A stretch of 46,077 bases of DNA, taken from Silvanigrellaceae bacterium. GTDB lineage: Bacteria > Bdellovibrionota_B > Oligoflexia > Silvanigrellales > Silvanigrellaceae. The translations under genes and the position numbers were made by a program. The notes beneath the pieces are model-generated. The model searched no databases. It was given only the letters and a program-made list of their open reading frames with translations, and was not told the origin of the DNA. This document shows positions 3,548 to 30,600 of the stretch, one piece after another. The stretch lies in the NCBI GenBank assembly GCA_049423385.1, contig JBMSQQ010000015.1, forward strand, positions 1 to 46,077, read 5' to 3'. The number at the start of each line of letters is the position of its first letter. Positions within the stretch are counted from its first letter, which is position 1.

Positions 3548-3892
3548 TTACTTCTTGCGAGCTGGAGCCTTCTTTGCAGCAGTTGCCTTCTTCTTGATGC
3601 CAACTGCTTCCTTGAGGGACTTGGCAGCGCGGAAAGCAACTTTCTTGGAAGCAGGGATGCGAATTTCTTCGCCAGTTTGTGGGTTGCGGCCCTTGCGAGC
3701 TGCGCGCTCTTTGACCTGGATGATGCCAACTTTGTCGAGACGGATCTTCGATTGATGGCTGACGAGCTCGGACTCGATTTCAGCGAGGAACTCAACGATC
3801 AGTTCCTTCGTGACTTTCTTTGGGAGTTCGTCGTGCTTGCTGGCAACAGCGGAAATGAGTTGACTGGTGGAAACGGTCGTTACCTTTTTCAT
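3548..3892 (-). CDS. HU/IHF-family DNA-binding protein with a short Lys/Ala-rich tail
   Basis: RAARKGRNPQTGEEIRIPASKKVAFRAAKSLKEAV; AGGAA RBS upstream. Confidence 0.95.
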   Translation of the reverse strand: MKKVTTVSTSQLISAVASKHDELPKKVTKELIVEFLAEIESELVSHQSKIRLDKVGIIQVKERAARKGRNPQTGEEIRIPASKKVAFRAAKSLKEAVGIKKKATAAKKAPARKK

Positions 3893-4120
3893 GTGCAGTG
3901 TTCCTTTCTTGAAAACCTGAAATGACCTTACAGTGCCTGTTTCAAACTGACAAGATCCTCACGCAAGAAAAAGCAAAAAAAAAACAGCGACACGAAAATC
4001 TGAATGAGTCAACTGCCCCAAGGGTAAAATGTCGAACTCGATTCGTTGCTCCGAGCTTGGTACACTCTCCCAACGCCGATGCGACGGCTCTCAAACTGTG
4101 TTGAAAAAGGCAAGAAACCT

Positions 4121-5632
4121 ATGACAATTCCGAATTTTCCTGCACGACCCGTGGTCTGTAGAAACCTGGTGGGTGGCGTCTGGCAAGACAGTGGAAGCTT
4201 GCCGACACGCGACATCATGAGCCCTTACAATGGTCAATTGGTCGGAAAGGTTCCGATGTCTTCCGCGCAGGAAGTCAACCAGACAATCGTTTCGGCACAT
4301 CAAGCCTGGTTGAATTGGCGCAGGACACCCTTGCGGACACGCTCAGAAATCCTGATGAAGTTCAGGAATCTTGTTCTGGAGAACATGTCCCGTCTGGTGG
4401 ATTCCGTTTCCGTGGAGTCCGGCAAAACCCGTATCGAGGCAGAAGCGGGCTTGCAAAAAGGAATTGAGATTATCGACTTTGCGGTGAGCCTGCCGAATTC
4501 GGAAAACTTGGCTGCAGCTGAAGTGAGTCAAGGAGTCACTTGTCAATTCAGGCGAGAATCATTGGGCGTCGTGGTCGGGATCACGCCGTTCAATTTTCCT
4601 GCCATGGTTCCCTTGTGGATGATTCCTCTGGCTTTGGTTGTCGGCAATTCTTTTGTTTTGAAACCGTCTGAAAAAGTGCCCATGACGCCGCAGATTCTTG
4701 GTGAGTTGTTGATTCAGGCCGGACTCCCGGCTGGGGTGTTTTCAATTATAAATGGCGGAGCCGACGTGGTGGACGCCCTGTTGGCTCATGATGATGTGAA
4801 AGCCATCGGGTTTGTTGGATCCACCTCTGTGGCTTCCCGGATCTATAAAAAGGGTTCGGCCTCCGGAAAGCGGGTGCTGGCTTTGGGCGGGGCAAAAAAC
4901 CACATCATCGTCACATCAGACTGTGAGCCGGAATCAACCGCACGTGGAATTCTTTCGTCGTTCACGGGTTGTGCTGGTCAACGCTGCATGGCTGCCAGTG
5001 TTCTTGTTGCCGTCGGTCAGGTTGACCATGTTCTTGCCAGGGTTGTCGAACTTGCGAAGGCGCAGGTTCTTGGCAAGGACATGGGAGCCATCATTGACGA
5101 AGCTTCTTTTCGGCGCATCGAAGCTGCAATCAACAATGCCATTGCTGAAGGCGCGAAGCTTCTTCTCGATGGTCGCGGCAAACAGGTTGGATTGCCGGGG
5201 TGTTCGGCTGGGCATTGGCTGGGTGCAACGATGATTGATGAAGCCAAGTCTTCGATGGAATGTGTGCAGCTGGAAATTTTTGGCCCGGTATTGACCATCA
5301 TGAGAGCCAACACGCTTGAAGATGCAGTGAGAATTTCAAATGAATCGATTTATGGAAACGCCGCTGCCGTGTTCACCACCCGGGGTGATGTCGCACAGTA
5401 CGTTGCCACCCATTCGAATGCCGGCATGATCGGAATCAATATAGGAGTGCCAGTGCCTCGTGAGCCGTTTTCATTTGGTGGTACAAAACAATCCCGTTTC
5501 GGCCATGGCGACATCACTGGCAAGAGCGGCTTGGATTTTTGGTCGGACCTCAAAAAAATCACAACAAGCTGGCCCACTGTGCAGAGCGATAAAAATTCGC
5601 CTTCGGGTCAGTTCCTGCTTCACACAACATAA
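4121..5632 (+). CDS. mmsA: CoA-acylating (methyl)malonate-semialdehyde dehydrogenase
   Basis: ITPFNFPAMVP, KPSE, FVGST, GGAKNH, catalytic AGQRCMA, EIFGP, NIGVPVP. Likely start is ATG 4121. Confidence 0.92.
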   Translation: MTIPNFPARPVVCRNLVGGVWQDSGSLPTRDIMSPYNGQLVGKVPMSSAQEVNQTIVSAHQAWLNWRRTPLRTRSEILMKFRNLVLENMSRLVDSVSVESGKTRIEAEAGLQKGIEIIDFAVSLPNSENLAAAEVSQGVTCQFRRESLGVVVGITPFNFPAMVPLWMIPLALVVGNSFVLKPSEKVPMTPQILGELLIQAGLPAGVFSIINGGADVVDALLAHDDVKAIGFVGSTSVASRIYKKGSASGKRVLALGGAKNHIIVTSDCEPESTARGILSSFTGCAGQRCMAASVLVAVGQVDHVLARVVELAKAQVLGKDMGAIIDEASFRRIEAAINNAIAEGAKLLLDGRGKQVGLPGCSAGHWLGATMIDEAKSSMECVQLEIFGPVLTIMRANTLEDAVRISNESIYGNAAAVFTTRGDVAQYVATHSNAGMIGINIGVPVPREPFSFGGTKQSRFGHGDITGKSGLDFWSDLKKITTSWPTVQSDKNSPSGQFLLHTT

Positions 5633-5652
5633 TTCAAGCGAGGAACAACATC

Positions 5653-6903
5653 GTGTCACAGCAGCGTCCTGGAACCCACCACATCGTTCTGACTTCGCAT
5701 CCCAACCACTTTGGACCAAAGCCGCCCGCCATCCAGTGGGGCGGCAAGGATGCTCTCGAGCGTGGTCCCGTGATTGCAACCGTTGCAAACGCAGCTCATC
5801 GGAATTCAATCGGCACCCATTCGGGTTCTTATGCAATCTATCGTGCGCTCGCCATTGCGACAGGCTCTTTGCAATCACTGCACAAGCCTGACCTCACAAA
5901 CACCGCGCCTGCAGAAAAAATAGGACCATTCGACAGTTGGTTTGATGCAGACAAGATTGTCTCGCTCGACCCTTGGGGGGCGTTGGTTTCGGATGCATAC
6001 AAAGACTTTCTTGAAAAAGGATATGATATTCGCCCGACCATTGCGGTCACCAAAGCCCACATCCATATGCCGGAAATCGCCGATGCCGTGTTGAAGGGAA
6101 GGCTGAAGCCGGATGGAAACATTGTCACTGAGGAAGGCATCTGCAGTGTCACCAAGGCAGCGATTGAACCGGTTTGGTATTTGCCGGGAGTCGCCAAGCG
6201 CTGTGGCATCGACGAGGGGATTTTGCGCAGGACCCTGTTTGAACAAACGGGAGGAATGTTTCCCGAGCTCATCACCCGGCCCGACATCTCCATGTTTCTG
6301 CCGCCGATTGGCGGTTACAGCATCTACATTTTCGGCGAATTGTCTGCAATCGATGATCCCAAGAAACCGATTGCGGTTCGTATTCATGATGAATGCAACG
6401 GTTCAGATGTTTTTGGTTCTGATATTTGTACGTGTCGACCCTACTTGACCCATGGCATTGAAGTTTGTGCCCAGGCTGCGCAAGAAGGTGGACTGGGAGT
6501 GATTGTCTATTGCCGAAAAGAGGGTCGGGCATTGGGTGAAGTCACTAAATTTCTTGTCTACAACGCCCGCAAGCGTCAAGAGGGAGGAGATCGGGCAGAG
6601 AAGTACTTCGCCCGGACGGAATGTGTGGCCGGGGTGCAGGACATGCGCTTTCAGGAGTTGATGCCCGATGTATTGCACTGGCTCGGAATCAAGAGAATCG
6701 ACAGACTGGTTTCAATGAGCAACATGAAATTCAATGCCATCGTCAATTCGGGAATTGTGGTCCACGATCGTTTCGAGATTCCGGATGATTTGATTCCTGC
6801 CGATGCACAGGTCGAAATGGACGCCAAGAAGGCGGCCGGTTATTTCACCGATCACATTCCGGATGACATTGAACTCAAGAAAAAGAAGGGGCGAGAGCTC
6901 TGA
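5653..6903 (+). CDS. GTP cyclohydrolase II-like protein, URC1/urg1 family
   Basis: N-terminal IVLTSHP...WG...RGPVIAT...RNSIGTHSGSY extension, then RIHDECNGSDVFGSDICTC (three Zn-ligand Cys) and RKEGRALGEVTKFLVYNARKRQ. GAGGAA RBS. Confidence 0.92.
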   Translation: MSQQRPGTHHIVLTSHPNHFGPKPPAIQWGGKDALERGPVIATVANAAHRNSIGTHSGSYAIYRALAIATGSLQSLHKPDLTNTAPAEKIGPFDSWFDADKIVSLDPWGALVSDAYKDFLEKGYDIRPTIAVTKAHIHMPEIADAVLKGRLKPDGNIVTEEGICSVTKAAIEPVWYLPGVAKRCGIDEGILRRTLFEQTGGMFPELITRPDISMFLPPIGGYSIYIFGELSAIDDPKKPIAVRIHDECNGSDVFGSDICTCRPYLTHGIEVCAQAAQEGGLGVIVYCRKEGRALGEVTKFLVYNARKRQEGGDRAEKYFARTECVAGVQDMRFQELMPDVLHWLGIKRIDRLVSMSNMKFNAIVNSGIVVHDRFEIPDDLIPADAQVEMDAKKAAGYFTDHIPDDIELKKKKGREL

Positions 6904-8147
6904 TGACCACTGAAAAAAATTCCTCGTTGAGCGAGCTCAGGAGTCTGACAACCGTCAGATCACAATGCCGTAAGTTGTATCAACTTGGACTGGAAAACAA
7001 GCTGTCACATTTCTCAATCGATGAAGCTCGACTGACCGCGGTGGTCGACTACATTCATAAAATCATCGTCGTCGATTATCCAACTCTCGACATTCCATTT
7101 CACAGCCGATGGCGTCATTTTGAAGCGGGTGGACATCAGCGGCAATTCAAGCTGCAACAGCTTTGGCACGACGCAGATGTTCTTGAAATTCTCCGCCGCC
7201 ACGTTGATCTTGTCGTTGTCAGTGTTCTCCTGGATGCGGGTGCGGGTGCAGACTGGAAGTATCATGAGAAGGAAACCGGGCAGACACACGGACGCTCCGA
7301 AGGACTCGGCATTGCCAGTCTCAAGATGTTCTCGGATGGTGTTTTTTCTTCGGATCACAAACAACCCTTTCAGGTTGATGCGGATGCCTTGTTAAAGCTT
7401 TCCCTCGATGATCTCAGGGCTGGATTTCAGGTGCTCGACAGCAATCCCATGCTGGGTTTGGAAGGACGAACCTCGCTGTTGCAAAAGCTGGGCCAAGCCA
7501 TGAAAGAGAAGACAAGCTACTTTGCCCGTGGATCTTCATTGCGACCGGGAAACATGATGGATTGGTTGTTGAATGGAGTCGTCGACAAACAGGTCGAATT
7601 GAATAGACTTTGGCAGGTGGTGATTGAGGGACTTGAAGAGATCTGGCCAACAGATCATCGAATCATTCTTGATGGCAGAAATTTGGGAGACGCATGGCGG
7701 CATGGAGCACTTGCGACCTCTGGCTCTTCCCCGGACATCGTTCCATTTCACAAGTTGTCCCAATGGTTGACCTACTCGCTTCTGGAGCCAATCCACGCAG
7801 CCGGGTTCGAAATTCATGGGCTTGAATTGCTGACAGGCCTTCCTGAATACCGAAATGGTGGATTGTTTCTCGATTTTGAAGTTCTGCGGCTCAAGGATGC
7901 CAATGCTGTGCTGCAAAAGCATCCAGTGGATTCGGAACTGATTATCGAGTGGCGCGCACTGACTGTTGTTCTGTTGGACAAGACGGCAGAGCTTGTGCGG
8001 CGAAAGTTGAAAATGTCCGAGAGCGATTTTCCTCTTGCCAAAGTTCTTGAGGCAGGAACCTGGAAGGCAGGTCGAAAAATTGCCGCCGAGAAGCGTTCGG
8101 GGGGATTGCCTCCACTCCAGGTCGTGAGTGATGGTACCGTTTTCTGA
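6903..8147 (+). CDS. URC4/urg3-family protein (DUF1688)
   Basis: IPFHSRWRHF, VSVLLDAGAG, RSEGLG, FHKLSQWLTYSL, LTGLPEYRNGGL, EWRALTV, terminal SDGTVF; TGATG coupling to URC1. Confidence 0.92.
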   Translation: MTTEKNSSLSELRSLTTVRSQCRKLYQLGLENKLSHFSIDEARLTAVVDYIHKIIVVDYPTLDIPFHSRWRHFEAGGHQRQFKLQQLWHDADVLEILRRHVDLVVVSVLLDAGAGADWKYHEKETGQTHGRSEGLGIASLKMFSDGVFSSDHKQPFQVDADALLKLSLDDLRAGFQVLDSNPMLGLEGRTSLLQKLGQAMKEKTSYFARGSSLRPGNMMDWLLNGVVDKQVELNRLWQVVIEGLEEIWPTDHRIILDGRNLGDAWRHGALATSGSSPDIVPFHKLSQWLTYSLLEPIHAAGFEIHGLELLTGLPEYRNGGLFLDFEVLRLKDANAVLQKHPVDSELIIEWRALTVVLLDKTAELVRRKLKMSESDFPLAKVLEAGTWKAGRKIAAEKRSGGLPPLQVVSDGTVF

Positions 8148-8164
8148 ATTAAGGAAAAATATTC

Positions 8165-8809
8165 ATGAGCAAGACTGAATTCAAAAACACTTTTCTGATT
8201 GAACATCCACTAGTTCAGCACAAGCTGACAATCATGAGAAAGCAAGAGACCAGCACACACAAATTTCGTGGTCTGTTGCAAGAGATCAGCATGTTGTTGG
8301 CCTATGAAGTGACACGTGACATGCCCCTGGCACTCACTGACATCAAGACGCCCGTCTCTGAAATGAAGGCTCCAATGCTCGAAGGAAAGAAAATCGTGCT
8401 TGTCTCGATTTTGAGAGCTGGACAGGGAATCGTCGATGGCATGTTGAGAATTCTTCCGTCCGCAAGGGTGGGTCACATTGGATTGTATCGCGAACCCAAG
8501 ACACATGTGGTCGTTGAATACTATTTCAAAGTGCCACGTGATATTTCCGACCGTGATGTGATCCTCGTTGATCCCATGCTGGCAACTGGAAACTCGGCCG
8601 TTGCCGCAGTTCATCGCCTGAAGCAAACGAGCCCGAGATCGATCAAGTTTGTGTGTTTGCTGGCTGCGCCGGAAGGACTCAGGCAGTTGCAGGAAGAGCA
8701 TCCAGATGTTCCTGTTTACACGGCAGCAATCGACAGTCATCTCGATGAACAAGGTTACATCGTTCCAGGTCTTGGCGATGCTGGCGATCGATTGTTTGGC
8801 ACAAAATAA
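8165..8809 (+). CDS. upp: Uracil phosphoribosyltransferase
   Basis: [17 protein letters not shown] motif [27 protein letters not shown]. Confidence 0.97.
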
Positions 8810-8847
8810 AAAAATGATGACCTGCGGTTGCGGCGGGAGATTTTATT

Positions 8848-9495
8848 GTGGGTGATCGAAAAGTGATTGTGGGAGTTTCCGGCGGTTCAGGGAGCGGAAA
8901 GACAACGTTTTGTCGTCAGTTGGTGAATCGACTTGGAGAGCATCAGGTTGTTCACCTCAAGCAGGACAGCTACTATCGCGACTTGAGTCATCTGTCTTCG
9001 GCTGAGCGTGATGCGGTGAACTTCGATCACCCGCAAGCCCTCGAATTTGATCTTCTCTGTGAACATTTGAAGGCGTTGAGGGGTGGGGTGGGTGTAGAAG
9101 TTCCTGTCTATGACTTTGCAACCCACACACGTTCAGCAGACAGCATCAGAACAGTTGCCAAGCCCATCATTGTCATCGAAGGAATTTTGATTCTTTCCCA
9201 ATCCAGGATTCTCGAGCAGTTGCAATACAGTATTTTTGTTGATGCACCCCAGGATGTTCGTCTTGCCAGAAGAATTCGGCGTGATATTGCCGAGCGAGGG
9301 CGAACAAAGGAAAGTGTTGAACAGCAGTTTTTTGCAACGGTTGCTCCAATGCACGACTTGTTTGTTGAGCCGTGTAAACAAAACTCGACGCGCATCATTT
9401 CGGGAGAGCAGCCATTCGATGACAGTATTGAACAACTTGTACGGCATTTGATGCGCGATGTCGCGTCGCGCCAGGACTCTTCCCAGGATAATTGA
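8848..9495 (+). CDS. udk: Uridine kinase
   Basis: P-loop GGSGSGKTT, DSYY, NFDHPQA, PVYDFATHTR, IEGIL, RRIRRDIAERGR. Confidence 0.95.
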   Translation: MGDRKVIVGVSGGSGSGKTTFCRQLVNRLGEHQVVHLKQDSYYRDLSHLSSAERDAVNFDHPQALEFDLLCEHLKALRGGVGVEVPVYDFATHTRSADSIRTVAKPIIVIEGILILSQSRILEQLQYSIFVDAPQDVRLARRIRRDIAERGRTKESVEQQFFATVAPMHDLFVEPCKQNSTRIISGEQPFDDSIEQLVRHLMRDVASRQDSSQDN

Positions 9496-9508: not shown

Positions 9509-9582
9509 TGGCTGGGGAACTAGGACTCGAACCTAGACTAACGGAGTCAGAATCCGTCGTCCTGCCATTAGACGATTCCCCA
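9509..9582 (-). tRNA. tRNA-Gln (anticodon CTG), CCA encoded
   Basis: Minus strand TGGGGAATCGTCTAATGGCAGGACG-ACGGA-TTCTGAC-TCCGT-TAGT-CTAGG-TTCGAGT-CCTAG-TTCCCCAGCCA folds as a full cloverleaf. Confidence 0.97.
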
Positions 9583-9648: not shown

Positions 9649-11076
9649 TCAGAGTCCTGCCCTGTCCAGAAGATTGTTCAATCTTTCCGTTGCCTCACGG
9701 CGGGCTGCCTTGTAATCGGATGAGCCCAGGACAGACCTCCGCACATCACCGATGGTGCCACGCCATCGGCCCAGGGTCATCAGACCCTTCAATGCGGGTT
9801 GAATATCGCTGAAAATCATTGAATGCAGCGGAGCATGCCCGGGCCAAAACACAGGATCTTCCCAATTCCAGACAACAAGATTCGCCAGGGATCCTGGCGC
9901 AAGACCCCGTGAACGTTCCCCCGCGATGGGTCCGTTTGCACAGCCAAAGAACAGAGCATTCAAAATCATTTCTTCAGAAATTGTGCGTTGTGCCTCGTCA
10001 CAGAGTGTGTGTCGCAGGGCATTGAGGCCTTGGGCCTGAATGGTGCTGGGCGCTCGCCTGAATTCGTTGAATTCGAGCGAATGTGAAATCGATGCCATGG
10101 GCCAGGTTGCCAGAGTTCGCATTTCCGCCTGGACGCGCAATGAATCGTTGCTGGCGGCGCAGTCGGTGCCGACAGCCCAGTTCAAGTTGTTTCGCCACCA
10201 GTCGAGGTAGGCCGCCGGGAACTGAAAGATGAGTTGGGAATGTGGACATGCGACAAGTCGCACATCCGGTGATTTGCAGTGGGCCAGATCTTTCTGGCTC
10301 ACATAGATCATGTGAACAAGATGTTTGATCGATCGGCTCTCAAAAACACCAGCACGACGCAAAAAATCAACAGGCGTGCAGCCGTATTGGCTTTGAATTC
10401 TGTTGAATTCCTCGGGAGACTGGGCAACATGACAGTGAATCGGCAAGTTGAGGTTTTCACCCAAATCAAGAATCTTGCGCCAGAGTTCTTCACTGACGGT
10501 GTCGGTGGCGTGGGGACCCATTGCCGCAGTGATTCCAAGTTGAGCATGGTACTCGCTGCCCTGAAGCGCTTGAGTAAATGCCAGGTTGGTTTCCCAGTCG
10601 CTTTTTCCGGGTCCGGAGATGTCCTGCAGTGTTGCAGCCACCGTGCCCGTCAGACCCACTTGTATCATCGCATCGGCGACGGCATCTCCGTGGTAATAGT
10701 GATCCCAAACTGCTGTCGTGCCCGACAGCAGGCATTCATAGGCACCCACACGTGAAAATGCGCCAACATCTGCCGGAGTGATCTTCTCCTCAAGCTTGAA
10801 AAAAACATCCTCGACAAGGTTTCCGGATGCCTGACCAGATTTTCCCGTGCGTCCTCTGATGAATCCAAGTGCCAGATGTGTGTGGGAGTCGACAAACCCG
10901 GGGGTGACCAGATCGTCACCGAACCAGTGTGATGTGGCTGTGATTTGTTCTGCGTTTGGATGCGTCTTTATTCCGCGAATTGTTGTTCCGTCGATCTGGA
11001 CTATGGCGGGCTCAAGACTCCAACCTTTTTCCCCTGAATGAAGCAGTACCCGCTTGGATCCAACGCTCACCGGCAT
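9649..11076 (-). CDS. Amidohydrolase-family metal-dependent hydrolase (MtaD/GuaD/AtzA-like clade)
   Basis: PGFVDSHTHL, GTT, PHATDT, HCHVAQ, VH, GTDCAASND, LAPGSLANLVV. Confidence 0.88.
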   Translation of the reverse strand: MPVSVGSKRVLLHSGEKGWSLEPAIVQIDGTTIRGIKTHPNAEQITATSHWFGDDLVTPGFVDSHTHLALGFIRGRTGKSGQASGNLVEDVFFKLEEKITPADVGAFSRVGAYECLLSGTTAVWDHYYHGDAVADAMIQVGLTGTVAATLQDISGPGKSDWETNLAFTQALQGSEYHAQLGITAAMGPHATDTVSEELWRKILDLGENLNLPIHCHVAQSPEEFNRIQSQYGCTPVDFLRRAGVFESRSIKHLVHMIYVSQKDLAHCKSPDVRLVACPHSQLIFQFPAAYLDWWRNNLNWAVGTDCAASNDSLRVQAEMRTLATWPMASISHSLEFNEFRRAPSTIQAQGLNALRHTLCDEAQRTISEEMILNALFFGCANGPIAGERSRGLAPGSLANLVVWNWEDPVFWPGHAPLHSMIFSDIQPALKGLMTLGRWRGTIGDVRRSVLGSSDYKAARREATERLNNLLDRAGL

Positions 11077-11141
11077 GTTTTCATCTCTCCCAAGTATGCG
11101 TTACTATACTGGCGTGATTTTTGATCGGGGAGAAGCTTTTT

Positions 11142-12953
11142 ATGTCAGATAATACAACAATGCTGCGCAGGGTTGGTCCTGCCGGGAGAATTTCGCTTCT
11201 TGCGGTCGTGGGTGCCTGCCTTTCGCCCTTGTCTTGTGTCAGCAAAAAGATGCCCACAGATTCGTCTCAGGGTGGAAGCGTCAATCCCGCTCTCGATAGT
11301 TTGCACAAGACGATTATCAATGGTGGTCCGGTGCTTGCCCGTGCGGAGGCGGGCCAAGGTTTGCTGTGGTTTCCTTTTGTCTGGAGCCCGATACTCGGCG
11401 GTCTCGACAAGTCTTCCGGCGTGAATGCGGTCGATACACTTTATTTCCAGCAGCCCAGACTGGTGCTTAAAAACTCCGCGACCAAGGCAGAGATTCTTGT
11501 TGATCTCCGCGAGGAGAACGGTTCTGAAAATCGTCGATTCCAAATCTCCCAGTCCGAGCCTCAAAAAATGCTTCGATTCTATTTCCCGCGGTTCATTGCG
11601 CTCAGTCAAGGCGATTACACAATTGAGGGCATCCGCACGGAGATCAGCACATCGGCTCAAGAGCGCGGTACGCTGGTGAGCATGCCCTTCGTCAATCCGT
11701 TCCAGAGCGCATCGGCCAAACCGTTGCAACTCAAGATTCGCGAAGGTCGTGTTGCAATGGTTGCGCGCGTCGTGCAGACCACGTCCATTGCCGAAACGGT
11801 TCAGGGCTTGAGCCTGAAAACCACTTCAGAAAATCTTGACAGCGATGTTGTTCCTGTGGGCCTTGTCTTGAAACAGCTGGGCAAATACTCAGCAGATGCT
11901 CTGGCAACTTTGGCCACTGCCTCGGATGATTTTCCCCGCACCCGATTGGATTTGACAGATCTCACTGGCAACACGGTTCAATTTGGTGATCAGGTGGCAC
12001 GTGTCGGCTTTGTGGTCGATGCTCCATGTGAATCCAAGGGGAGTGTAAGGCTCGTCTGGAAACGTCAAAATGACGATCGCGAGTATCTGACGCAATTTCC
12101 AATCACCGAAGCCAAGACGGATTGTAAAGACAAACATTCTTTTGGTTTCAAGTTCACGGTGCCTGCCGGTGACTGGGTTTTGAAATCTACGATGCTTTCT
12201 CCCGCGGGAACATTCCAGCCGCAAATTCAAACGTCTTGGCTCAAGTCGCCCAGTCTTTTGTTGAAAGAATATTTTTCGCTCGAGGAACCTCAGTTCCAGT
12301 GGACCATGGAAACCCACAAGGAACGCGAAATTCGCAAGGCATTGGTCATTCCGGTTGACTCTGCAAGCCGTCGTTTTGCAGAGCTGCGCCGAAGCAAGGA
12401 CGTTTATCGTGCGAATTCACTCAGCCAAAACTCGGATATTCTTTTTCTGGGGCATTTTGACATCCGGACAAGCGAAGCCAAAAATGACAAGGTGGCGATT
12501 TGGGATTTTGTCTTGAAGTCGAGTTTTGATTTGACACGTGCGCAGGACTTGTTGGGCGCTAAAGATGTCTTCAATGCCTACACGCTCGAGAGGCTCAATT
12601 ATGGCCGTTCCAACAATGCAAGCATCGTGTTGCGAACCGCTGCCGACAAGGACGACAGGCCAAGCGTCGCACCTGTTGCGGCCGAGCTTCAGGGCGAAGC
12701 AAAAAAGGCATATTCATCCTGCGTGAAAGAACGCGAAGAGACCGATCCTCTGGTGAATCTGGCAGGACTTTTGCAGTTCACGGTTCTCAAGGGGAGTGAC
12801 AGTGTCAATTTGAAGAGCCAACGAGCATCAGGTGATGCGATTGTGGAAAATTGGCTGGAGTTGTGCATGAAGAAAAAATTCATCGGATTCCGTTTTTCCA
12901 GAAAGGCACCGGTGAATTTTCAGGGTGAACTCAAGTTTGGCAAAGAAAACTGA
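11142..12953 (+). CDS. Hypothetical lipoprotein, possibly with a C-terminal AgmX/PglI (TonB-C-like) domain
   Basis: About 600-aa ORF with GGGGAG RBS before ATG 11142, a basic plus hydrophobic N-terminus ending LSPLSC, and a two-Cys C-terminal module. Confidence 0.75.
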   Translation: MSDNTTMLRRVGPAGRISLLAVVGACLSPLSCVSKKMPTDSSQGGSVNPALDSLHKTIINGGPVLARAEAGQGLLWFPFVWSPILGGLDKSSGVNAVDTLYFQQPRLVLKNSATKAEILVDLREENGSENRRFQISQSEPQKMLRFYFPRFIALSQGDYTIEGIRTEISTSAQERGTLVSMPFVNPFQSASAKPLQLKIREGRVAMVARVVQTTSIAETVQGLSLKTTSENLDSDVVPVGLVLKQLGKYSADALATLATASDDFPRTRLDLTDLTGNTVQFGDQVARVGFVVDAPCESKGSVRLVWKRQNDDREYLTQFPITEAKTDCKDKHSFGFKFTVPAGDWVLKSTMLSPAGTFQPQIQTSWLKSPSLLLKEYFSLEEPQFQWTMETHKEREIRKALVIPVDSASRRFAELRRSKDVYRANSLSQNSDILFLGHFDIRTSEAKNDKVAIWDFVLKSSFDLTRAQDLLGAKDVFNAYTLERLNYGRSNNASIVLRTAADKDDRPSVAPVAAELQGEAKKAYSSCVKEREETDPLVNLAGLLQFTVLKGSDSVNLKSQRASGDAIVENWLELCMKKKFIGFRFSRKAPVNFQGELKFGKEN

Positions 12954-13640: not shown

Positions 13641-14438
13641 ATGTCAGAACCGGTAAAACTAGGTTACCGCATCTTTCGATTTCGTGGAGCAGGGGAGGCA
13701 CTGAAATTCCCTGTTGTTTTGCTCCGGGGTCTGGGTAGATCGTCAGGATTTTGGCTCGAGTTTGCCGAAAAGCTTTCAGAGCACGCACAGGTGGTCTGTA
13801 TCGACCTGCTGGGCACAGGCCTTTCGGCATCAAAGTGGGGCAGGGGGAGTATTTCGGGCTTTGCCTCGGATGTTGCCTTCACGCTCGAGTCGTTGGGATT
13901 CAAGCAAGTTCACCTTGTGGGAATCAGTCTGGGCGGCATGGTGGCCATCGAGGTCGGTGCCCGCAGTGAAGTTGTTGCCAAGCTTGCAGTGCTTGCTTCG
14001 TCTTCTCGTGGCGGCAACGAAAAGCGCATCGAGAGCGAGGCACTTTTCAGATTGCTGTGGTCTTTGCGCAAGGGAACACCTGCCAATGCAGAACTCGCTC
14101 CGTTTTTGGTGTCGCAAGAGACACTAAAGTCGAGACCAGAATTGCCAGCAATTTGGGATGAACTGTGGCAGAGGGAAGGATTCCGCACGCTACCGGTTCT
14201 GCGGCAACTCCTCGCGGCGGCACTGTTTGACGCTGGGCCTGCGTTGGCCACAATGGCCAAGCCAATCATGTTCATGGTTTCCAAAGCCGACGCTCTCGTG
14301 CCTTGGCGAAACACGGTTGCGCTCTGTGAAAAATCAAAGAATTGTGAGCTGGTTGTTCTGGAAGGCTACGGTCATGATTTTCCAACAGAGGCACCAGATT
14401 TGGTGATAGGTCATCTCCTGGAGTTTTTTTCCCGCTAG
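13641..14438 (+). CDS. Alpha/beta-fold hydrolase
   Basis: LLRGLG, DLLGTGLS, nucleophile GISLGG, DALVP, GHD. Confidence 0.9.
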   Translation: MSEPVKLGYRIFRFRGAGEALKFPVVLLRGLGRSSGFWLEFAEKLSEHAQVVCIDLLGTGLSASKWGRGSISGFASDVAFTLESLGFKQVHLVGISLGGMVAIEVGARSEVVAKLAVLASSSRGGNEKRIESEALFRLLWSLRKGTPANAELAPFLVSQETLKSRPELPAIWDELWQREGFRTLPVLRQLLAAALFDAGPALATMAKPIMFMVSKADALVPWRNTVALCEKSKNCELVVLEGYGHDFPTEAPDLVIGHLLEFFSR

Positions 14439-23472: not shown

Positions 23473-24930
23473 TCAAACAAAATCGTGGGGCATGTAGTCT
23501 CGGGTGCTGCGAAAGCTGAAATTGGGAGAATAATTGATCAGGTTCGTCAAGCGGCTCGTGTAGAGGCAGGCGTAGTTTTCCACCTGGGCGGCGAACCTGG
23601 AATTCTGGTGCCCCGTTTTCATCAGCTGTCCCCAGATGGGATGAAAATTCTGATGATATTTACGCATGCTCCGCCTGAGCGATTCACGGGTTGTGTCCCG
23701 CTTTCCCGAAATGGATTCGATGGATGTCCTGAGTTGCTCCAACCGTTCGTTCTTGGCGCTGCGGGGTTTGTCTGCTGAGGACGATTCAAGATTATCCATC
23801 TCGATTTGCATTCTCTGGAACTCGTCGTCCAGATCATCCTTGAGTTCCAGAAGTTCCTCATAGCGTCTGAATTCGTCCTTGAATTTTGTCAGGGTCCCGA
23901 GCTCAGCCTCGAGCTCATTGATGACCAGCATGGTTCGCCAGCCAAGTTCTTTTTTACTGCGCAAAATATCGCCGTAGATATGGTCACCGACGTAGAGGAT
24001 TTCAGGACCCGAACGGATTCCCAATCGCTCGTGCAATTGCTTGAAATTGCCGCCTTGAAAGATCTTCGATTCGGTGTTGCGGATGTCATCCAGGTTTTTA
24101 AGAAGTCCGGAATGAGGGTCAACCTCATACAGTGGATTCAGCGACATGAAAAAAGAAGGTTTTGCAGCTCCAGTGACGACAACATCGAAATATTCGAGCC
24201 AATCCATGCTCAATTTTCGAGACTCATTGCCAAAGATGTAGTTCATGACGACATGTGTGTAATCCCAGAGACTGTTCGTCACGATGAAAACCTTGCGTCC
24301 CGACTGGCGAAAACGATTGAGGGTCTCCTTCAGGAGAGGGTCTCGTTGAATGTATTTCGACGGTTCGCTCGCCACTTTGAGTTTGATGCTTCCATCCCGA
24401 TGGCAAAGGTCTATCGAGTTTCTGACATCACGATAGATTTCCAAAGGTGATTTCGTGATCCGCGTGGGGCGCTGTGATTTGAGATCAATCAATTGCGCAA
24501 AGAGATATGCATCAGCCAAAGTGAACAAGGTGTCTATAAGCGCATAATCCGGTTCTTCATAAGATTGCATCAACGATGCGTCATAAAGTGCGCGACGTTC
24601 CTCGCGAGCCAATTCCTTGAAGCCATGATAGGCCACCTTCACATAGCGATGACGGTCAAGCTTGATGATGTTGCCACGCTGTTTGTCGATTGCCAGGCCC
24701 CGGATCATGTGATCGATATCGAATTTCCATTCGAGAATATCTTCAGGATAGCCAACGTTAACCAGTTTTTTAAGGGTCTCATTATAGGCCAGGACTTCGA
24801 AGGCCTCAGGTTTGTACAACGCAAGCGTGTAATCCATGTCGAACCCAACGGCCCGAATGTTACGCATGTTCAGCGAGCGGTTGCAATAAATTCTACGTGC
24901 TGCCTCGATGTCTGAAACTGAAATATGCAT
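23473..24930 (-). CDS. HAD-IG family cN-II-type 5'-nucleotidase
   Basis: IYCNRSLNM, GFDMDYTLA, IDTLFTL, VTNS, AAKPSFF, LYVGDHIYGDIL, WRTML, ACLYTSRLTN. Likely start is ATG 24930. Confidence 0.93.
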   Translation of the reverse strand: MHISVSDIEAARRIYCNRSLNMRNIRAVGFDMDYTLALYKPEAFEVLAYNETLKKLVNVGYPEDILEWKFDIDHMIRGLAIDKQRGNIIKLDRHRYVKVAYHGFKELAREERRALYDASLMQSYEEPDYALIDTLFTLADAYLFAQLIDLKSQRPTRITKSPLEIYRDVRNSIDLCHRDGSIKLKVASEPSKYIQRDPLLKETLNRFRQSGRKVFIVTNSLWDYTHVVMNYIFGNESRKLSMDWLEYFDVVVTGAAKPSFFMSLNPLYEVDPHSGLLKNLDDIRNTESKIFQGGNFKQLHERLGIRSGPEILYVGDHIYGDILRSKKELGWRTMLVINELEAELGTLTKFKDEFRRYEELLELKDDLDDEFQRMQIEMDNLESSSADKPRSAKNERLEQLRTSIESISGKRDTTRESLRRSMRKYHQNFHPIWGQLMKTGHQNSRFAAQVENYACLYTSRLTNLINYSPNFSFRSTRDYMPHDFV

Positions 24931-24943
24931 ATTTTTTTCCGGT

Positions 24944-25546
24944 TCAGGATTGACGAATAAACTGCACACCCACTTGATAGAAGTGGTGTCCATTCTCTTC
25001 AAAAATCTGTTTGACGTATACGACTCGCCCCTGTCTGACCAATTCGGCGCTGCCCTTTGCTTTAATCGTCATGTTCGAGAAAACGCGTCCGGTTTGCATC
25101 AACTTGGTTGGGATACGGCCCCTGAAGCTGAGTCCTCCGGTCGACAAATCGTACAATCTTCGTCTGAGGATTGTCCCTGAGTCGAAAGGGTGGGTGATGA
25201 GTACAATCGCTTCTTCACTGTTGGAAAAAACCTTTCGATCATCAGCTCTTGATTGCGGGAGCAAACTGATGTGATGCATCGGGAAGCGAATGTCTGTGCC
25301 GTGTGCAAACAAGGCCGCACTCATGAGTTGAAAATCCCGACAAATAAGCGAGAACTCGGTGCTGCTCACCACGTCAGGCAAGACGTCCACGGGAATCGGA
25401 TTCTTGAAAACAACGGACTCATCGATGATTCCGACTGGGGTGCAGAGGAAAGAAACCGACCTGCCACGAGGATTCAGAATCAACGGTTGTTTTTTTTCAA
25501 CGAGATCCGCGAAAACCTTTTCAAATTCATTTTTGGATACAATCAT
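24944..25546 (-). CDS. PilZ-domain (c-di-GMP-binding) protein
   Basis: RADDR (RxxxR) and DLSTGGLSF (DxSxxG); GRVVYVK; GVQF. Confidence 0.85.
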   Translation of the reverse strand: MIVSKNEFEKVFADLVEKKQPLILNPRGRSVSFLCTPVGIIDESVVFKNPIPVDVLPDVVSSTEFSLICRDFQLMSAALFAHGTDIRFPMHHISLLPQSRADDRKVFSNSEEAIVLITHPFDSGTILRRRLYDLSTGGLSFRGRIPTKLMQTGRVFSNMTIKAKGSAELVRQGRVVYVKQIFEENGHHFYQVGVQFIRQS

Positions 25547-27073: not shown

Positions 27074-27631
27074 ATGCGTCAATTTTTCGGAATTGTATTG
27101 ATTTTCTGTCTGATTGCTTTTGTCAGTCCGCTTGCCGAAGGCAAAACCCCTTGCATCACCCGCCAGGAGCTGACGGCCCGTTCAACAGGAATTGTTCAGC
27201 GCTATCATGCTTCCAATGGGGACATTATTCGCAAGGGTGACCCTGTCATCGAATTTGACTCGCGGCTTTTGCGCGCCGGCTACAAGGAGGCGCAAGCTGC
27301 GGTCGACGCGGCCAAGGGGAATGAGGAACTTGCTGCGGACGCACTTCTGCGTCTTGAAAAACTGCAGGGCAGCGAAGCGGTGACCGCCCAGCAATTGGCC
27401 GAGGCAAAAATCCGGGTCAGCCAGGCTCGCGCTCTTCGGCGGCAGGCCGAAGCGGCAGCCGAGCGCGTCAAGGTTCAGCTGGATGACACCATGCTGCGGG
27501 CTGAGGTTGGCGGTCGGGTTCAAGGCCTGCCAACCATTCTTGGTATGGTTGTTCAGGTTGGTCAATCACTTGGCAGCATCGAAGTGGTTGGCGCAGGTTG
27601 CTCCGCTGTTGCTCCATCGAAAAACAACTAA
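27074..27631 (+). CDS. RND efflux periplasmic adaptor, short form
   Basis: Signal peptide, lipoyl half ARSTGIV...GDIIRKGDPVIEFD, coiled hairpin, second lipoyl half LRAEVGGRV...GMVVQVGQSL; GGGAGG RBS. Confidence 0.85.
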   Translation: MRQFFGIVLIFCLIAFVSPLAEGKTPCITRQELTARSTGIVQRYHASNGDIIRKGDPVIEFDSRLLRAGYKEAQAAVDAAKGNEELAADALLRLEKLQGSEAVTAQQLAEAKIRVSQARALRRQAEAAAERVKVQLDDTMLRAEVGGRVQGLPTILGMVVQVGQSLGSIEVVGAGCSAVAPSKNN

Positions 27632-27642
27632 GGAGCTTCGCG

Positions 27643-30600
27643 ATGAATCTTGCGCGCTTCTCCGTCAAGCGGCCCGTGACTTCAGGAATTATCAGTCTCG
27701 CACTTTTTATTCTGGGTGTTTTTTATCTCATCAAGATGCCGGTTTCCTTGTATCCCGACGTCTCCATTCCGTTCATTTCCGTCACCGTTCCCTATCCGGG
27801 CGCATCTCCGGAGCAGATTGAATCCGCAATCGTGAAACCCATCGAAGCCGAAGTCGCAGGACTCAAGAAAATTTCGCGGGTGATTGGTGTTGCCCGGCCA
27901 GGCTACGGGCAGTTGATTCTCGGCTTCAAAATGTCTGCCGATGAGCAGGAAGCTGCCGATTCGGTGCGCGAAAAGGTGTCGATCGTCAAAGGTCGTTTTC
28001 CACAAGGTGCCAAAGAACCAATTGTCGCGAGAGTTGATGTCGGGGCCACGCCGATTCTGATTTACGGGGTCGAGACGCAAAAATCAGCCGAAGAAACGCA
28101 GCGCATTCTCGATGACGTTTTACTGCCTGAGCTTCGCCGCACCGAAGGTGTCAACGAGGCAAAAGTTCTGGGTATTGGCGACGAGAGGGTCCAGCTCACT
28201 CTGGATGCGCGCAAGCTCTCGGATCTTCGCGTTGCTCCTCTCGATATTTTCGAACAACTCTCTGCCAAGATGGCAGTCATACCCTGGGGCGAAGTCACCC
28301 AAGACAGCCAGGTGATGTCGGTTTCCCGTAGCCTTCTCCCAGCAGATCTCAAATATTGGGAAAGTCAACGTGTCACATTGCGTGATGGACGAACCGTCTT
28401 CCTGGCGGATGTTGGTGAGCTGAAAATTGTCCGCGACGAGACCGCTTCCAGCGTCTTCATCAACGGCAAGCGTGGACTGGGTTTGGTGATCACAAAGCGG
28501 GCCGATGCCAACACCGTCGGAAGTGTCAAAGCGGTCAAGAAAACTCTGTCCCGCATCACTCTCCCAGACAATGTCAAGCTGTTCAGCATCGTTGATCAGA
28601 GCTCATTCATCCAGGAAAACTCAAAAGAAGTCTGGATCGCACTTTTTGCGGGTGGTGCCTTTGCGGTTTTGATTATTTTGTTGTTTCTCACTGATATCCG
28701 CAGTGCACTTATTTCAGCTACGGCATTGCCAGTGAGTATCGCAGGCTCATTTATTTTCATGAGCTGGCTCGACTTCTCGGTCAACATGATGAGCCTTTTG
28801 GCGATGGCTTTGGCGATTGGACTTTTGATCGACGACGCCGTGGTGGTGCGCGAGGCGATTTACACTGAACTCGAACATGGAGCCACTCCGGCCGAGGCTG
28901 CGGTGAAGGGAACGGATCGTGTTGCCGCAGCCGTGATGGCGACCTCTTTGGCGGTCATCGCCGTGTTTCTTCCGGTGGCAGGCATGGAAGGAATGGTCGG
29001 GCAATTTTTCAAGCAGTTTGGCGTGACAATCTGCATTGCCGTTGCGATTTCGACTTGGGTTGCGTTTACGCTTGATCCGATGCTGTCGGCCTATTTCGCT
29101 GGCAAACCGCGTCCTTTTCAAGGTGCTTTTTGGGACAAATGGCGCTCGTGGCTTGTGCGCACCGAGCAGGTCATTTCTGGTTGGGCAGTGGCTTCTTTCA
29201 AGCGACCTGTCACGGTCTTGATTCTCGCGGTTGTGACATTGTTTGCAGCCACAGGCCTGAGTCTTTCCCGCGGCTCCGACTTTCTTGCGTTTGAAGACCG
29301 TGGCCAGTTCATCATCAACATCCGTGGAAAATCTGGTTCCACCCGTGAAAAAAGCGAGAAGCTTGCCGAGCAAACCCTTGAGAGAGTCAAAGACTTCGAG
29401 GGATTGCAGGAAGTTTTTGTCACCGTTGGTGAACGTGGCGACGAGACTCTTGTGCAGATGAGATTGGTTTTCAACGCCAAAACCAAGCGCAAAACAGGGC
29501 TCTTGCAGATGCAAAAAATGGCGCGTGAACGCTTGAAGGATATCGATGGCGAAGTGCTTGTGATGGATCCACCACCCATCGAAGGCATTGGTGGCGAGGC
29601 GCCATTGAGTGTCTACGTCTATGGAGAAAATCTCGCTGAAACACGCAAAGCTGCCGAGGATCTTCTTGCCAAAATCCGCGCTCTTCCTGGCGTGGGAAAT
29701 GCGAGGCTCGAGACGGCAGCATTCGCAAAAGGTTTGGATGTTTCTTTCAAACCACTGGACCTTGGTTTTGCAGGTTCGGCAACCCAGGCAGTGGAACTCA
29801 CTGGTCGGCTGGCGCTCACTGGCGTCGAGGCCGGATTCGTTGGCGACAAAAACACTCCTTTTGTTCTGCGCCTGGCCGACAAGGATCGCACGATCGAAAA
29901 TCTATGGAACAATATCTATGTGCCCAGCATGCGCGGGCCAATGGCGTTGAATCAATTTGCGGATCTGCAGGAATCGTATCGCCCGCGCGGCATCGATCGC
30001 GAACGTCGCTCGCGCAAGATGGTCATTTGGGGAACACTCGACCGCACGCGCACCTATGGGGTCGTGCTCGGTGAAGTTCAGAAACTTGTTGATGCGGTTC
30101 CTGCGCCATTTTCAGCTGAAATCCAAGGCGACAAGGAAGTCTTTGAAGAGATGGTGGGCAGTTTCACTCTGGCCATTGTCGGCAGTTTGTTTTTTATCTT
30201 CATCATCTTGGCTGCGCAGTTTGAAAACCTGTTGCGTCCGTTCGTGATTCTTTTGTCGCTTCCACTGGCAGTGATTGGTGGATTCGCCGCACTTTACGTC
30301 GCCGGGCATCAATTGGCCCTGGGCGCACTCATTGGAATGGTTTTCCTTATCGGACTCGCGGCCAAGAATGGAATCCTTCTTGTGGACGCTGTTGGTGTGA
30401 AGGAAAAAACGATGCCACTCTCAGACGCAGTTCGCGAGAGTGTGAAAGAGCGTTCGCGCGCGATTCTGATGACGTCCATTGCAATGATTTTCGGAATGAT
30501 TCCCACCGCGGTCATGCGTGGTGGAGGATCAGAATTCCGCTCGCCGATGGCACTGGCCATCATTGGCGGTGTGCTCTCGAGTACCTTCTTGTCGTTTTTT

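Follow-up and report, generated by a model that had tools for sequence, protein, structure and literature searches.

The stretch of DNA analysed here (henceforth the window; 46,077 nucleotides, contig JBMSQQ010000015.1 of assembly GCA_049423385.1) belongs to a freshwater, Silvanigrella-like member of the Silvanigrellaceae whose genome assembly (G000; 3.47 Mb, 183 contigs) has a completeness of 90.6%. Five consecutive genes lie on its forward strand: mmsA (4121..5632), for a putative coenzyme A (CoA)-acylating (methyl)malonate-semialdehyde dehydrogenase (MMSDH) of a clade linked to uracil catabolism (URC) genes; a homologue of URC1 and UrcA (5653..6903), for a two-domain cyclohydrolase; URC4 (6903..8147), for a DUF1688 protein; upp (8165..8809), for uracil phosphoribosyltransferase (UPRT); and udk (8848..9495), for uridine kinase. 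The two-domain cyclohydrolase, the DUF1688/URC4 protein and the UPRT that together characterise a URC-type cluster are thus adjacent here. We read the five genes as one operon for URC-type catabolism of uridine and uracil, extended at both ends and with urea, ribose phosphate and acetyl-CoA as its outputs, and put the probability of this reading at about 0.7. It rests on the gene order and the protein families, on how these are conserved, on the fold of URC4 and on the lack of rival pathways in the assemblies searched.

Layout and families of the predicted operon

A first-pass annotation of the window had described five co-oriented genes with gaps of 20, -1, 17 and 38 nt, figures that the listing of open reading frames (ORFs) reproduced exactly. 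The mmsA ORF spans 4046..5632; its ATG at 4121, which gives a protein of 503 amino acids, agrees with the starts of same-genus homologues in the alignment. Shine-Dalgarno-like motifs (GAGGA, AAGGA and GGGAG) stand at the junctions, URC1 and URC4 overlap in a TGATG stop/start, and the only terminator-like stems that a consensus scan found inside the five-gene unit were short ones of 5–6 bp. The unit is bordered upstream by an HU-like gene (3548-3892) with its own terminator and downstream by a tRNA-Gln (9509-9582), both on the opposite strand. From this layout and its conservation we would expect the five genes to be co-transcribed. The intergenic region that the divergent HU-like gene shares with mmsA (3893..4120) holds the element AGTCAAC(T/G)GCCCC, which together with its flanking blocks is conserved in 12 of the 13 same-genus sequences aligned and could serve as an operator or belong to a promoter common to both genes. 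A riboswitch upstream of mmsA was considered and rejected, no Rfam family being found there at gathering score; the tRNA-Gln was the sole Rfam match in the window.

The family assignments of the first-pass annotation are backed for all five genes by Pfam and NCBIfam scores. The URC1 homologue matches PF12471 (282 bits), PF00925 (57 bits) and NF005536 (735.2 bits, cut-off 403), and its residues 9–416 align with PDB entries 7EJ3 and 7EEV (423–425 amino acids) at E 4.5e-180 and 602 bits. The segment CNGSDVFGSDICTC of the cyclohydrolase II domain is identical in the URC1 homologue and 7EJ3 and contains a Cys-x10-Cys-x-Cys motif, whose cysteines act as zinc ligands. We take 7EEV and 7EJ3 to be the bacterial uridine triphosphate (UTP) cyclohydrolase UrcA, which reportedly is the subject of Zhang et al. 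(ACS Catal 2021). A secondary account, in the part of it that is available, names UTP as the substrate of bacterial UrcA (PMC9499338). Hydrolysis of UTP by the window's protein is predicted from this likeness. The first-pass annotation had called the chemistry of URC1 unresolved, a statement that the full-length match to 7EJ3/7EEV and the UTP substrate given for UrcA in that account make outdated.

Upp scores 275.1 bits with TIGR01091 (cut-off 208.35), and tblastn revealed no second copy of its gene in the window's genome. Udk scores 235.7 bits with NF004018 (cut-off 180) and 217.7 bits with TIGR00235, just under the cut-off of 220.3. Its gene is a second copy, the paralogue (50% identical) lying at C10:27132-27725. 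That Udk offers a second entry into the route, from uridine, had already been suggested, and gene context supports it, since udk is linked to the cluster in two different arrangements (see below) and is present here as an additional copy.

Conservation of the gene order and the MmsA clade

A scan with the window's DUF1688 protein confirmed at least 594 relatives, and the best 80 loci, taken across all phyla, were used for counts. URC1 lay upstream of URC4 in 69 of these best 80 (5 more end at contig ends) and upp downstream of URC4 in 61; mmsA stood upstream of URC1 in nine and udk after upp in three. Six of the nine are from Myxococcota and three from metagenome-assembled genomes (MAGs): one of the same genus, one labelled 'Deltaproteobacteria' and one of Bdellovibrionales. 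Closer to the window the proportions are different. DUF1688 is present in 43 of 61 relatives' genomes, including all 12 of the genus, and in 69 of the 104 genomes of the window's GTDB phylum (22 of the 26 in its family). Of 44 DUF1688 matches outside the window's genome, all from relatives in its class and inspected over about 8 kb on each side, 36 had mmsA directly upstream of URC1-URC4, including all 12 from the genus; of the remaining eight, two stop at contig ends. Within this set upp was present in 30 loci. In 13 loci udk came after upp in the same orientation, and in seven it lay divergently upstream of mmsA or URC1.

The first-pass annotation had joined mmsA to URC1 and URC4 and proposed a neighbourhood analysis of DUF1688 genes as a check. 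Now that it has been run, the linkage holds for the window's class, in which mmsA and udk are frequent neighbours, but does not extend to DUF1688 loci in general, among which both are rare. The complete five-gene order was found in 13 of the 44 relatives' loci and in 6 of 8 more distant loci reached through mmsA and, because it recurs in this manner, is not a product of chance. It occurs in Acanthopleuribacter pedis and in one MAG each of Bacteriovoracales, Bdellovibrio and Holophagae, as well as in one labelled Bacillota; one genus of the Silvanigrellaceae family has mmsA-URC1-URC4 without upp. The placement of mmsA directly upstream of URC1-URC4 is also seen in Myxococcota and Holophagae, and the adjacency of mmsA to URC1, with gaps of 20–142 nt, persists across three phyla. 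With the window's MmsA as the sole query, 16 of the 17 loci returned had URC1-URC4 directly downstream. The five-gene cluster is, in short, a lineage-restricted variant of a known pathway. A full-text literature search, within whose reach the primary URC and UrcA papers did not fall, found no description of mmsA or udk in URC clusters and none of a function for DUF1688.

For lineages without mmsA, a different gene handling the three-carbon (C3) fragment was sought by clustering 1,921 crude ORFs from 132 loci. This brought up no reductase or dehydrogenase that recurred, and the neighbours confined to single lineages were ABC transporter parts, phosphopentomutase, pyrimidine-nucleoside phosphorylase and amidohydrolases.

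MmsA itself exceeds the cut-off of TIGR01722 by a narrow margin (462.3 against 448.5 bits) and matches the MMSDH entries of the PDB at E 1e-99 to 5e-109. Canonical MMSDH copies from five genomes with unlinked URC clusters score 566–712 bits with the same model and are 36–39% identical to the window's protein. The motif GQRCMA, in which an Arg precedes the catalytic Cys in the alignment, is present, and ALGGAKNH stands where two outgroup aldehyde dehydrogenases have LEMGGKNP, a Leu replacing the Glu of the E-x-GGKNP motif. The linked MmsA proteins, like canonical MMSDH, keep the Arg-Cys motif and lack this Glu; the former, and the loss of the general-base Glu, are marks of CoA-acylating MMSDH. 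This mmsA is the sole MMSDH-type gene in the window's genome (the next aldehyde dehydrogenase is 30% identical), and in five of five further linked-form genomes only the URC-linked copy passes the TIGR01722 cut-off (449–498 bits). Family and gene context together suggest that MmsA acts on malonate semialdehyde with CoA, and in the predicted operon it fills the place of the C3-handling enzyme.

We placed the linked proteins in two trees. The first had 68 rows (52 linked MmsAs, one sequence from a locus designated L165, seven canonical MMSDH and eight other aldehyde dehydrogenases, with 14 further aldehyde dehydrogenase rows omitted) and joined the linked MmsAs and L165 in one clade apart from the seven canonical sequences (Shimodaira-Hasegawa-like approximate likelihood-ratio support 100). 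An alignment-based scan with the linked MmsAs then contributed 80 loci, 37–52% identical, from Bacteroidota, Myxococcota, Gemmatimonadota, Verrucomicrobiota, Planctomycetota and others. The second tree (FastTree) had 120 rows: 30 of the 52 linked sequences after thinning of near-copies, 78 of the 80 new loci (two partial ones were dropped), L165, the seven canonical sequences and four outgroups. In it the linked MmsA clade comprises 36 rows (31 linked, three unlinked, two at contig ends) with local support 99. Its sister is a group of eight unlinked Myxococcota sequences, and both fall within a branch of 92 rows in which all other sequences are unlinked. By these sequence comparisons, a URC-associated MmsA clade exists within a widespread and mostly unlinked protein type. 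The broader statement that every close relative of MmsA is URC-linked was tried and ruled out by the scan, and the claim was narrowed to the clade.

Acanthopleuribacter pedis (locus L171) has, directly upstream of mmsA and next to its five-gene operon, a HIBADH-like beta-hydroxyacid dehydrogenase (at about 4500-5400). The protein has NAD_binding_2 and NAD_binding_11 domains, scores 198 bits with TIGR01692, below the cut-off, and may handle 3-hydroxypropionate or malonate semialdehyde.

The fold and conserved residues of URC4

The sole Pfam family reported for URC4 is PF07958 (524.5 bits), and PDB sequence searches found no solved structure that matches it. An AlphaFold2 model built from 31 sequences has a pLDDT of 93 and a predicted template-modelling score of 0.91. 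A Foldseek search with this model returned eleven significant hits (E <= 0.001), all of them Qng1/DUF2419 chains and followed by a next hit at E 0.38; the ten Qng1 hits shown have E values of 7e-9 to 6e-8 and template-modelling (TM) scores, by target, of 0.73–0.78. An Atlas search recovered the same similarity between URC4 and Qng1. It also contained one cluster of 81 members in which URC4 and URC1 are fused (PF07958, PF00925 and PF12471). Judged by its model, URC4 is a structural relative of Qng1; by sequence it is not a member of PF10343.

Qng1 hydrolyses queuosine 5'-monophosphate, and its active site is described as a Lys of the helix-hairpin-helix, an Asp-Tyr-Lys stretch (nucleophile, ribose stacking and phosphate contact, respectively) and the carboxylate of an invariant terminal Tyr (PMC9881137). 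Qng1 constructs that bore a tag at the C-terminus had no activity, according to the same paper, and DUF1688 and URC4 go unmentioned in its main text. We aligned DUF1688 sequences (alignment A1) by hhalign with six PF10343 proteins (A2), which came from Actinomycetota genomes (6 of the 201 searched had one). In this low-probability alignment K284 of URC4 falls on the invariant Lys of Qng1, and E315-Y316 fall on the invariant Asp and the residue after it. Among 116 distinct DUF1688 sequences K284 is kept in 115 and E315, Y316, R317 and D324 in all 116. The last residue is a Phe in 114 of the 116 (DGT[VIL]F), and residue 414 of the URC4 model aligns with chain residue 323 of StQng1, the last residue of that protein.

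Because of the Qng1-like fold and the conserved K284, E315, Y316, R317 and terminal Phe, we propose that URC4 is an N-glycosidase that would free urea from ribosylurea 5'-phosphate. The proposal agrees with the ribosylurea that reportedly accumulates in yeast urc4 mutants (Bjornberg et al. 2010). Three results count against it: a profile search of the PDB found no Qng1, so that a link between DUF1688 and Qng1 by sequence alone had to be rejected; the hhalign match is weak (E 0.0021, probability 13%, 249 columns); and the position of the catalytic Asp of Qng1 is occupied in URC4 by a Glu, E315.

The proposed route, its alternatives and known systems

The route would begin with uridine monophosphate (UMP), made by Udk from uridine and ATP and by Upp from uracil and phosphoribosyl pyrophosphate (PRPP). 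The first-pass annotation had argued from gene context that UMP is the substrate of ring opening, which does not hold if UrcA is, as described in the available part of PMC9499338, a UTP cyclohydrolase. UMP is accordingly the entry point and would have to be raised to UTP, by kinases encoded outside the operon. The URC1/UrcA homologue would then open the uracil ring of UTP by hydrolysis. On the model of GTP cyclohydrolase II, C4-C5-C6 would leave as malonate semialdehyde and a ribosylurea phosphate would remain; these products are also those expected from the yeast pathway, in the part of PMC7530994 available, and from the linkage to mmsA. URC4, as a Qng1-like helix-hairpin-helix N-glycosidase, would split ribosylurea phosphate into urea and ribose 5-phosphate, and MmsA would convert malonate semialdehyde, CoA and NAD+ to acetyl-CoA, CO2 and NADH. 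The UrcA products, the reactions of URC4 and MmsA and the excretion of urea are the predicted parts of this scheme.

The fate of the urea bears on the purpose of the route. Urease alpha was found neither in G000, G001 and G026 (the last 99% complete) nor in any of the 26 family genomes, and in 7 of the 104 genomes of the phylum; allophanate hydrolase was found in 0 of 26 and 2 of 104, respectively. Matches to urea carboxylase in G000, G001 and G026 covered the biotin-carboxylase and biotinyl parts only, with none specific to that enzyme. As the search of the family yielded neither urease nor urea amidolyase, the Silvanigrellaceae probably excrete urea as waste, and the operon would therefore be a source of carbon and energy and not of nitrogen. 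Energetically, the cost of PRPP and of two kinase steps is recovered only when the C3 fragment goes on to be oxidised. Oxidation of that fragment through MmsA for carbon and energy was the central idea of the first-pass annotation, and it survives at the level of gene context, given the mmsA linkage, the sole MMSDH and the failure to find a rival source of substrate, for the lineages in which the linkage occurs and not as a general rule.

Several observations weigh against the reading as a whole. In the alignment-based scan 1 of the 80 loci was URC-linked, so that the MmsA-like protein type is widespread without URC, and the clade members L165, L212 and L213 have no URC1 or URC4 nearby. (L165, from a MAG labelled Pseudomonadota, keeps a divergent udk beside mmsA; L212 and L213 are from Bdellovibrionales MAGs.) As the only MMSDH in the genome, MmsA could serve other pathways as well. 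On a FastTree phylogeny of 115 URC1 proteins the mmsA linkage requires seven changes, three of them forced by supported branches, and so does not reflect one clean inheritance. Vitiosangium, which has the linked form, also has urease. Finally, pyrH, the gene of the bacterial UMP kinase (TIGR02075), was found in none of the 26 family genomes, closed ones of 96–99% completeness included. It passes the cut-off in 71 of the 104 genomes of the phylum and in none of four in a second family. The weak hits are truncated aspartate kinases, and PyrH was dropped as the UMP kinase of the route. The genus has an extra, divergent ORF of the adenylate-kinase family (320 amino acids, G000:C139:186-1148, locus L293), which is a candidate that may replace PyrH.

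Of the alternatives, one leaves the pathway in place and takes away its oxidative end: MmsA might be a general (methyl)malonate-semialdehyde dehydrogenase, active in valine, beta-alanine or propionate metabolism, that sits beside the URC genes without taking their product. This would suit its being the sole MMSDH-type gene both here and in the five other linked genomes, and the close relatives, at 45–52% identity, that are unlinked in 79 of the 80 loci of the scan. We nevertheless think it improbable, given an adjacency to URC1 that 36 of 44 relatives share and that extends over three phyla, a clade of their own for the linked copies, and a want of other substrate sources: in G000, G001 and G026 there was no HIBADH match and no IolB (beta-alanine transaminase was not searched for), and neither dihydropyrimidinase nor RutA, at best 42 bits, appeared above its cut-off. 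A different view accepts the reactions and disputes their purpose, the operon serving nitrogen scavenging or the homeostasis of the pyrimidine pool, with urea used by an unrecognised route and acetyl-CoA incidental. Yeast URC is indeed a nitrogen route, according to the part of PMC7530994 available, and urease occurs in four of five genomes with unlinked URC clusters as well as in Vitiosangium; for the window's family, in which 22 of 26 genomes have DUF1688 and none has urease alpha or allophanate hydrolase, and with nothing specific to urea carboxylase in G000, G001 or G026, we give this view little credence.

URC4 could also act at another step, for instance by releasing ureidoacrylate from the nucleotide or by processing the triphosphate, urea and malonate semialdehyde arising otherwise or spontaneously. 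The products of UrcA being themselves predicted, the modelled fold pointing to an N-glycosidase-like active site and no further, and a URC4-URC1 fusion being suited to any two consecutive steps, there is some room for this, yet the ribosylurea said to accumulate in yeast urc4 mutants (Bjornberg et al. 2010) and the lack of a RutB-type partner in the conserved URC neighbourhoods make it unlikely. Least credible to us is that the URC1-like gene encodes a conventional GTP cyclohydrolase II for riboflavin synthesis and that the cluster is not catabolic. 'GTP cyclohydrolase II' is the molecule name given by the depositors of 7EJ3 and 7EEV and the title of NF005536; the RibA models, however, give the window's protein 49–60 bits, far below their cut-offs, a separate RibA-like gene (31% identical across the cyclohydrolase domain) lies on contig C14 of the same genome, the linkage with DUF1688 and upp is constant, and UrcA is reported, in the available part of PMC9499338, to act on UTP.

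Beyond the predicted operon itself, we entertain a wider and more tentative proposal, to which we would give somewhat less than an even chance: that Silvanigrella-like, Bdellovibrio-like, myxobacterial and Holophagae lineages have rebuilt URC from nitrogen scavenging to carbon and energy supply, discarding urea, keeping ribose 5-phosphate and acetyl-CoA and using a dedicated MmsA clade, and that their URC4 is a ribosylurea-5'-phosphate N-glycosidase acting through Glu315, Lys284 and the C-terminal carboxylate, which would be the first non-queuosine activity of the Qng1 fold. If these readings are correct, the last unassigned step of URC, that of URC4, would be closed with a concrete reaction and residues, and gene context would independently back the view that UTP cyclohydrolase yields malonate semialdehyde as its C3 product. 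A group of bacteria, many of them of predatory lineages, would turn the pyrimidines of RNA into acetyl-CoA and ribose phosphate and discard the nitrogen as urea, and the annotations 'GTP cyclohydrolase II' and 'DUF1688' would be corrected in hundreds of genomes.

Elsewhere in the window, 14 kb from the operon, a 509-amino-acid protein (23473-25002, reverse strand) matches PF05761, the eukaryote-type cytosolic 5'-nucleotidase, over its full length (E 6.2e-166) and is a second nucleotide-catabolic gene. After the operon come a TRZ/ATZ-family amidohydrolase (9649-11076, reverse), a 610-amino-acid ORF without a family (11121-12953, forward) and a RutD-like alpha/beta hydrolase (13641-14438, forward); their order is kept within the genus only, and they were rejected as parts of the system. 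In an ORF of 1486 amino acids (27598-32058, forward) a complete AcrB-type transporter (ACR_tran, 652 bits) precedes a match to the outer-membrane efflux protein family (OEP, residues 1324-1458); the ORF may be a fusion or the read-through of two genes.

Among known systems, the yeast URC genes resemble the window's operon in layout: in Lachancea kluyveri (URC1, URC4, URC6, URC3,5 and URC8) and in urg1-urg2-urg3 of Schizosaccharomyces pombe homologues of URC1, DUF1688 and UPRT are adjacent, as here. Yeast URC8 is said to reduce the C3 fragment to 3-hydroxypropionate (Rasmussen 2014), whereas oxidation by a CoA-acylating MmsA is proposed here. Yeast disposes of urea by urea amidolyase (URC3,5), and here neither that enzyme nor urease was found in the searched genomes of the window's family. 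Unlike yeast URC, the window's operon includes a uridine kinase, and it probably serves to supply carbon and energy, not nitrogen. Entry through UMP is shared, as are urea and a three-carbon fragment as expected products (PMC7530994 and PMC2174524, in the parts available), and in S. pombe uracil induces the homologues of URC1, UPRT and DUF1688 (PMC2174524, likewise).

With bacterial UrcA (7EEV, 7EJ3) the window's URC1 homologue shares a full-length match and the same widespread URC1-URC4-upp core. Qng1/DUF2419 (PF10343; 7UK3, 7UGK and 7U91) shares its fold with URC4 at 14–17% identity, with no Pfam or profile-to-sequence match between them; URC4 has a Glu for the nucleophile Asp and a Phe for the terminal Tyr, is about 90 residues longer, and would be expected to release urea where Qng1 releases a deazapurine. 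The reductive pyrimidine pathway, finally, reportedly runs in Bacillus megaterium to acetyl-CoA through beta-alanine and malonate-semialdehyde dehydrogenase (Zhu et al. 2020). In both routes C4-C6 of uracil would reach acetyl-CoA through an enzyme of the MMSDH family, but in contrast to the reductive pathway the URC route proposed here would open the ring by hydrolysis, at the level of the nucleotide, and involve neither a reduction nor a transaminase.

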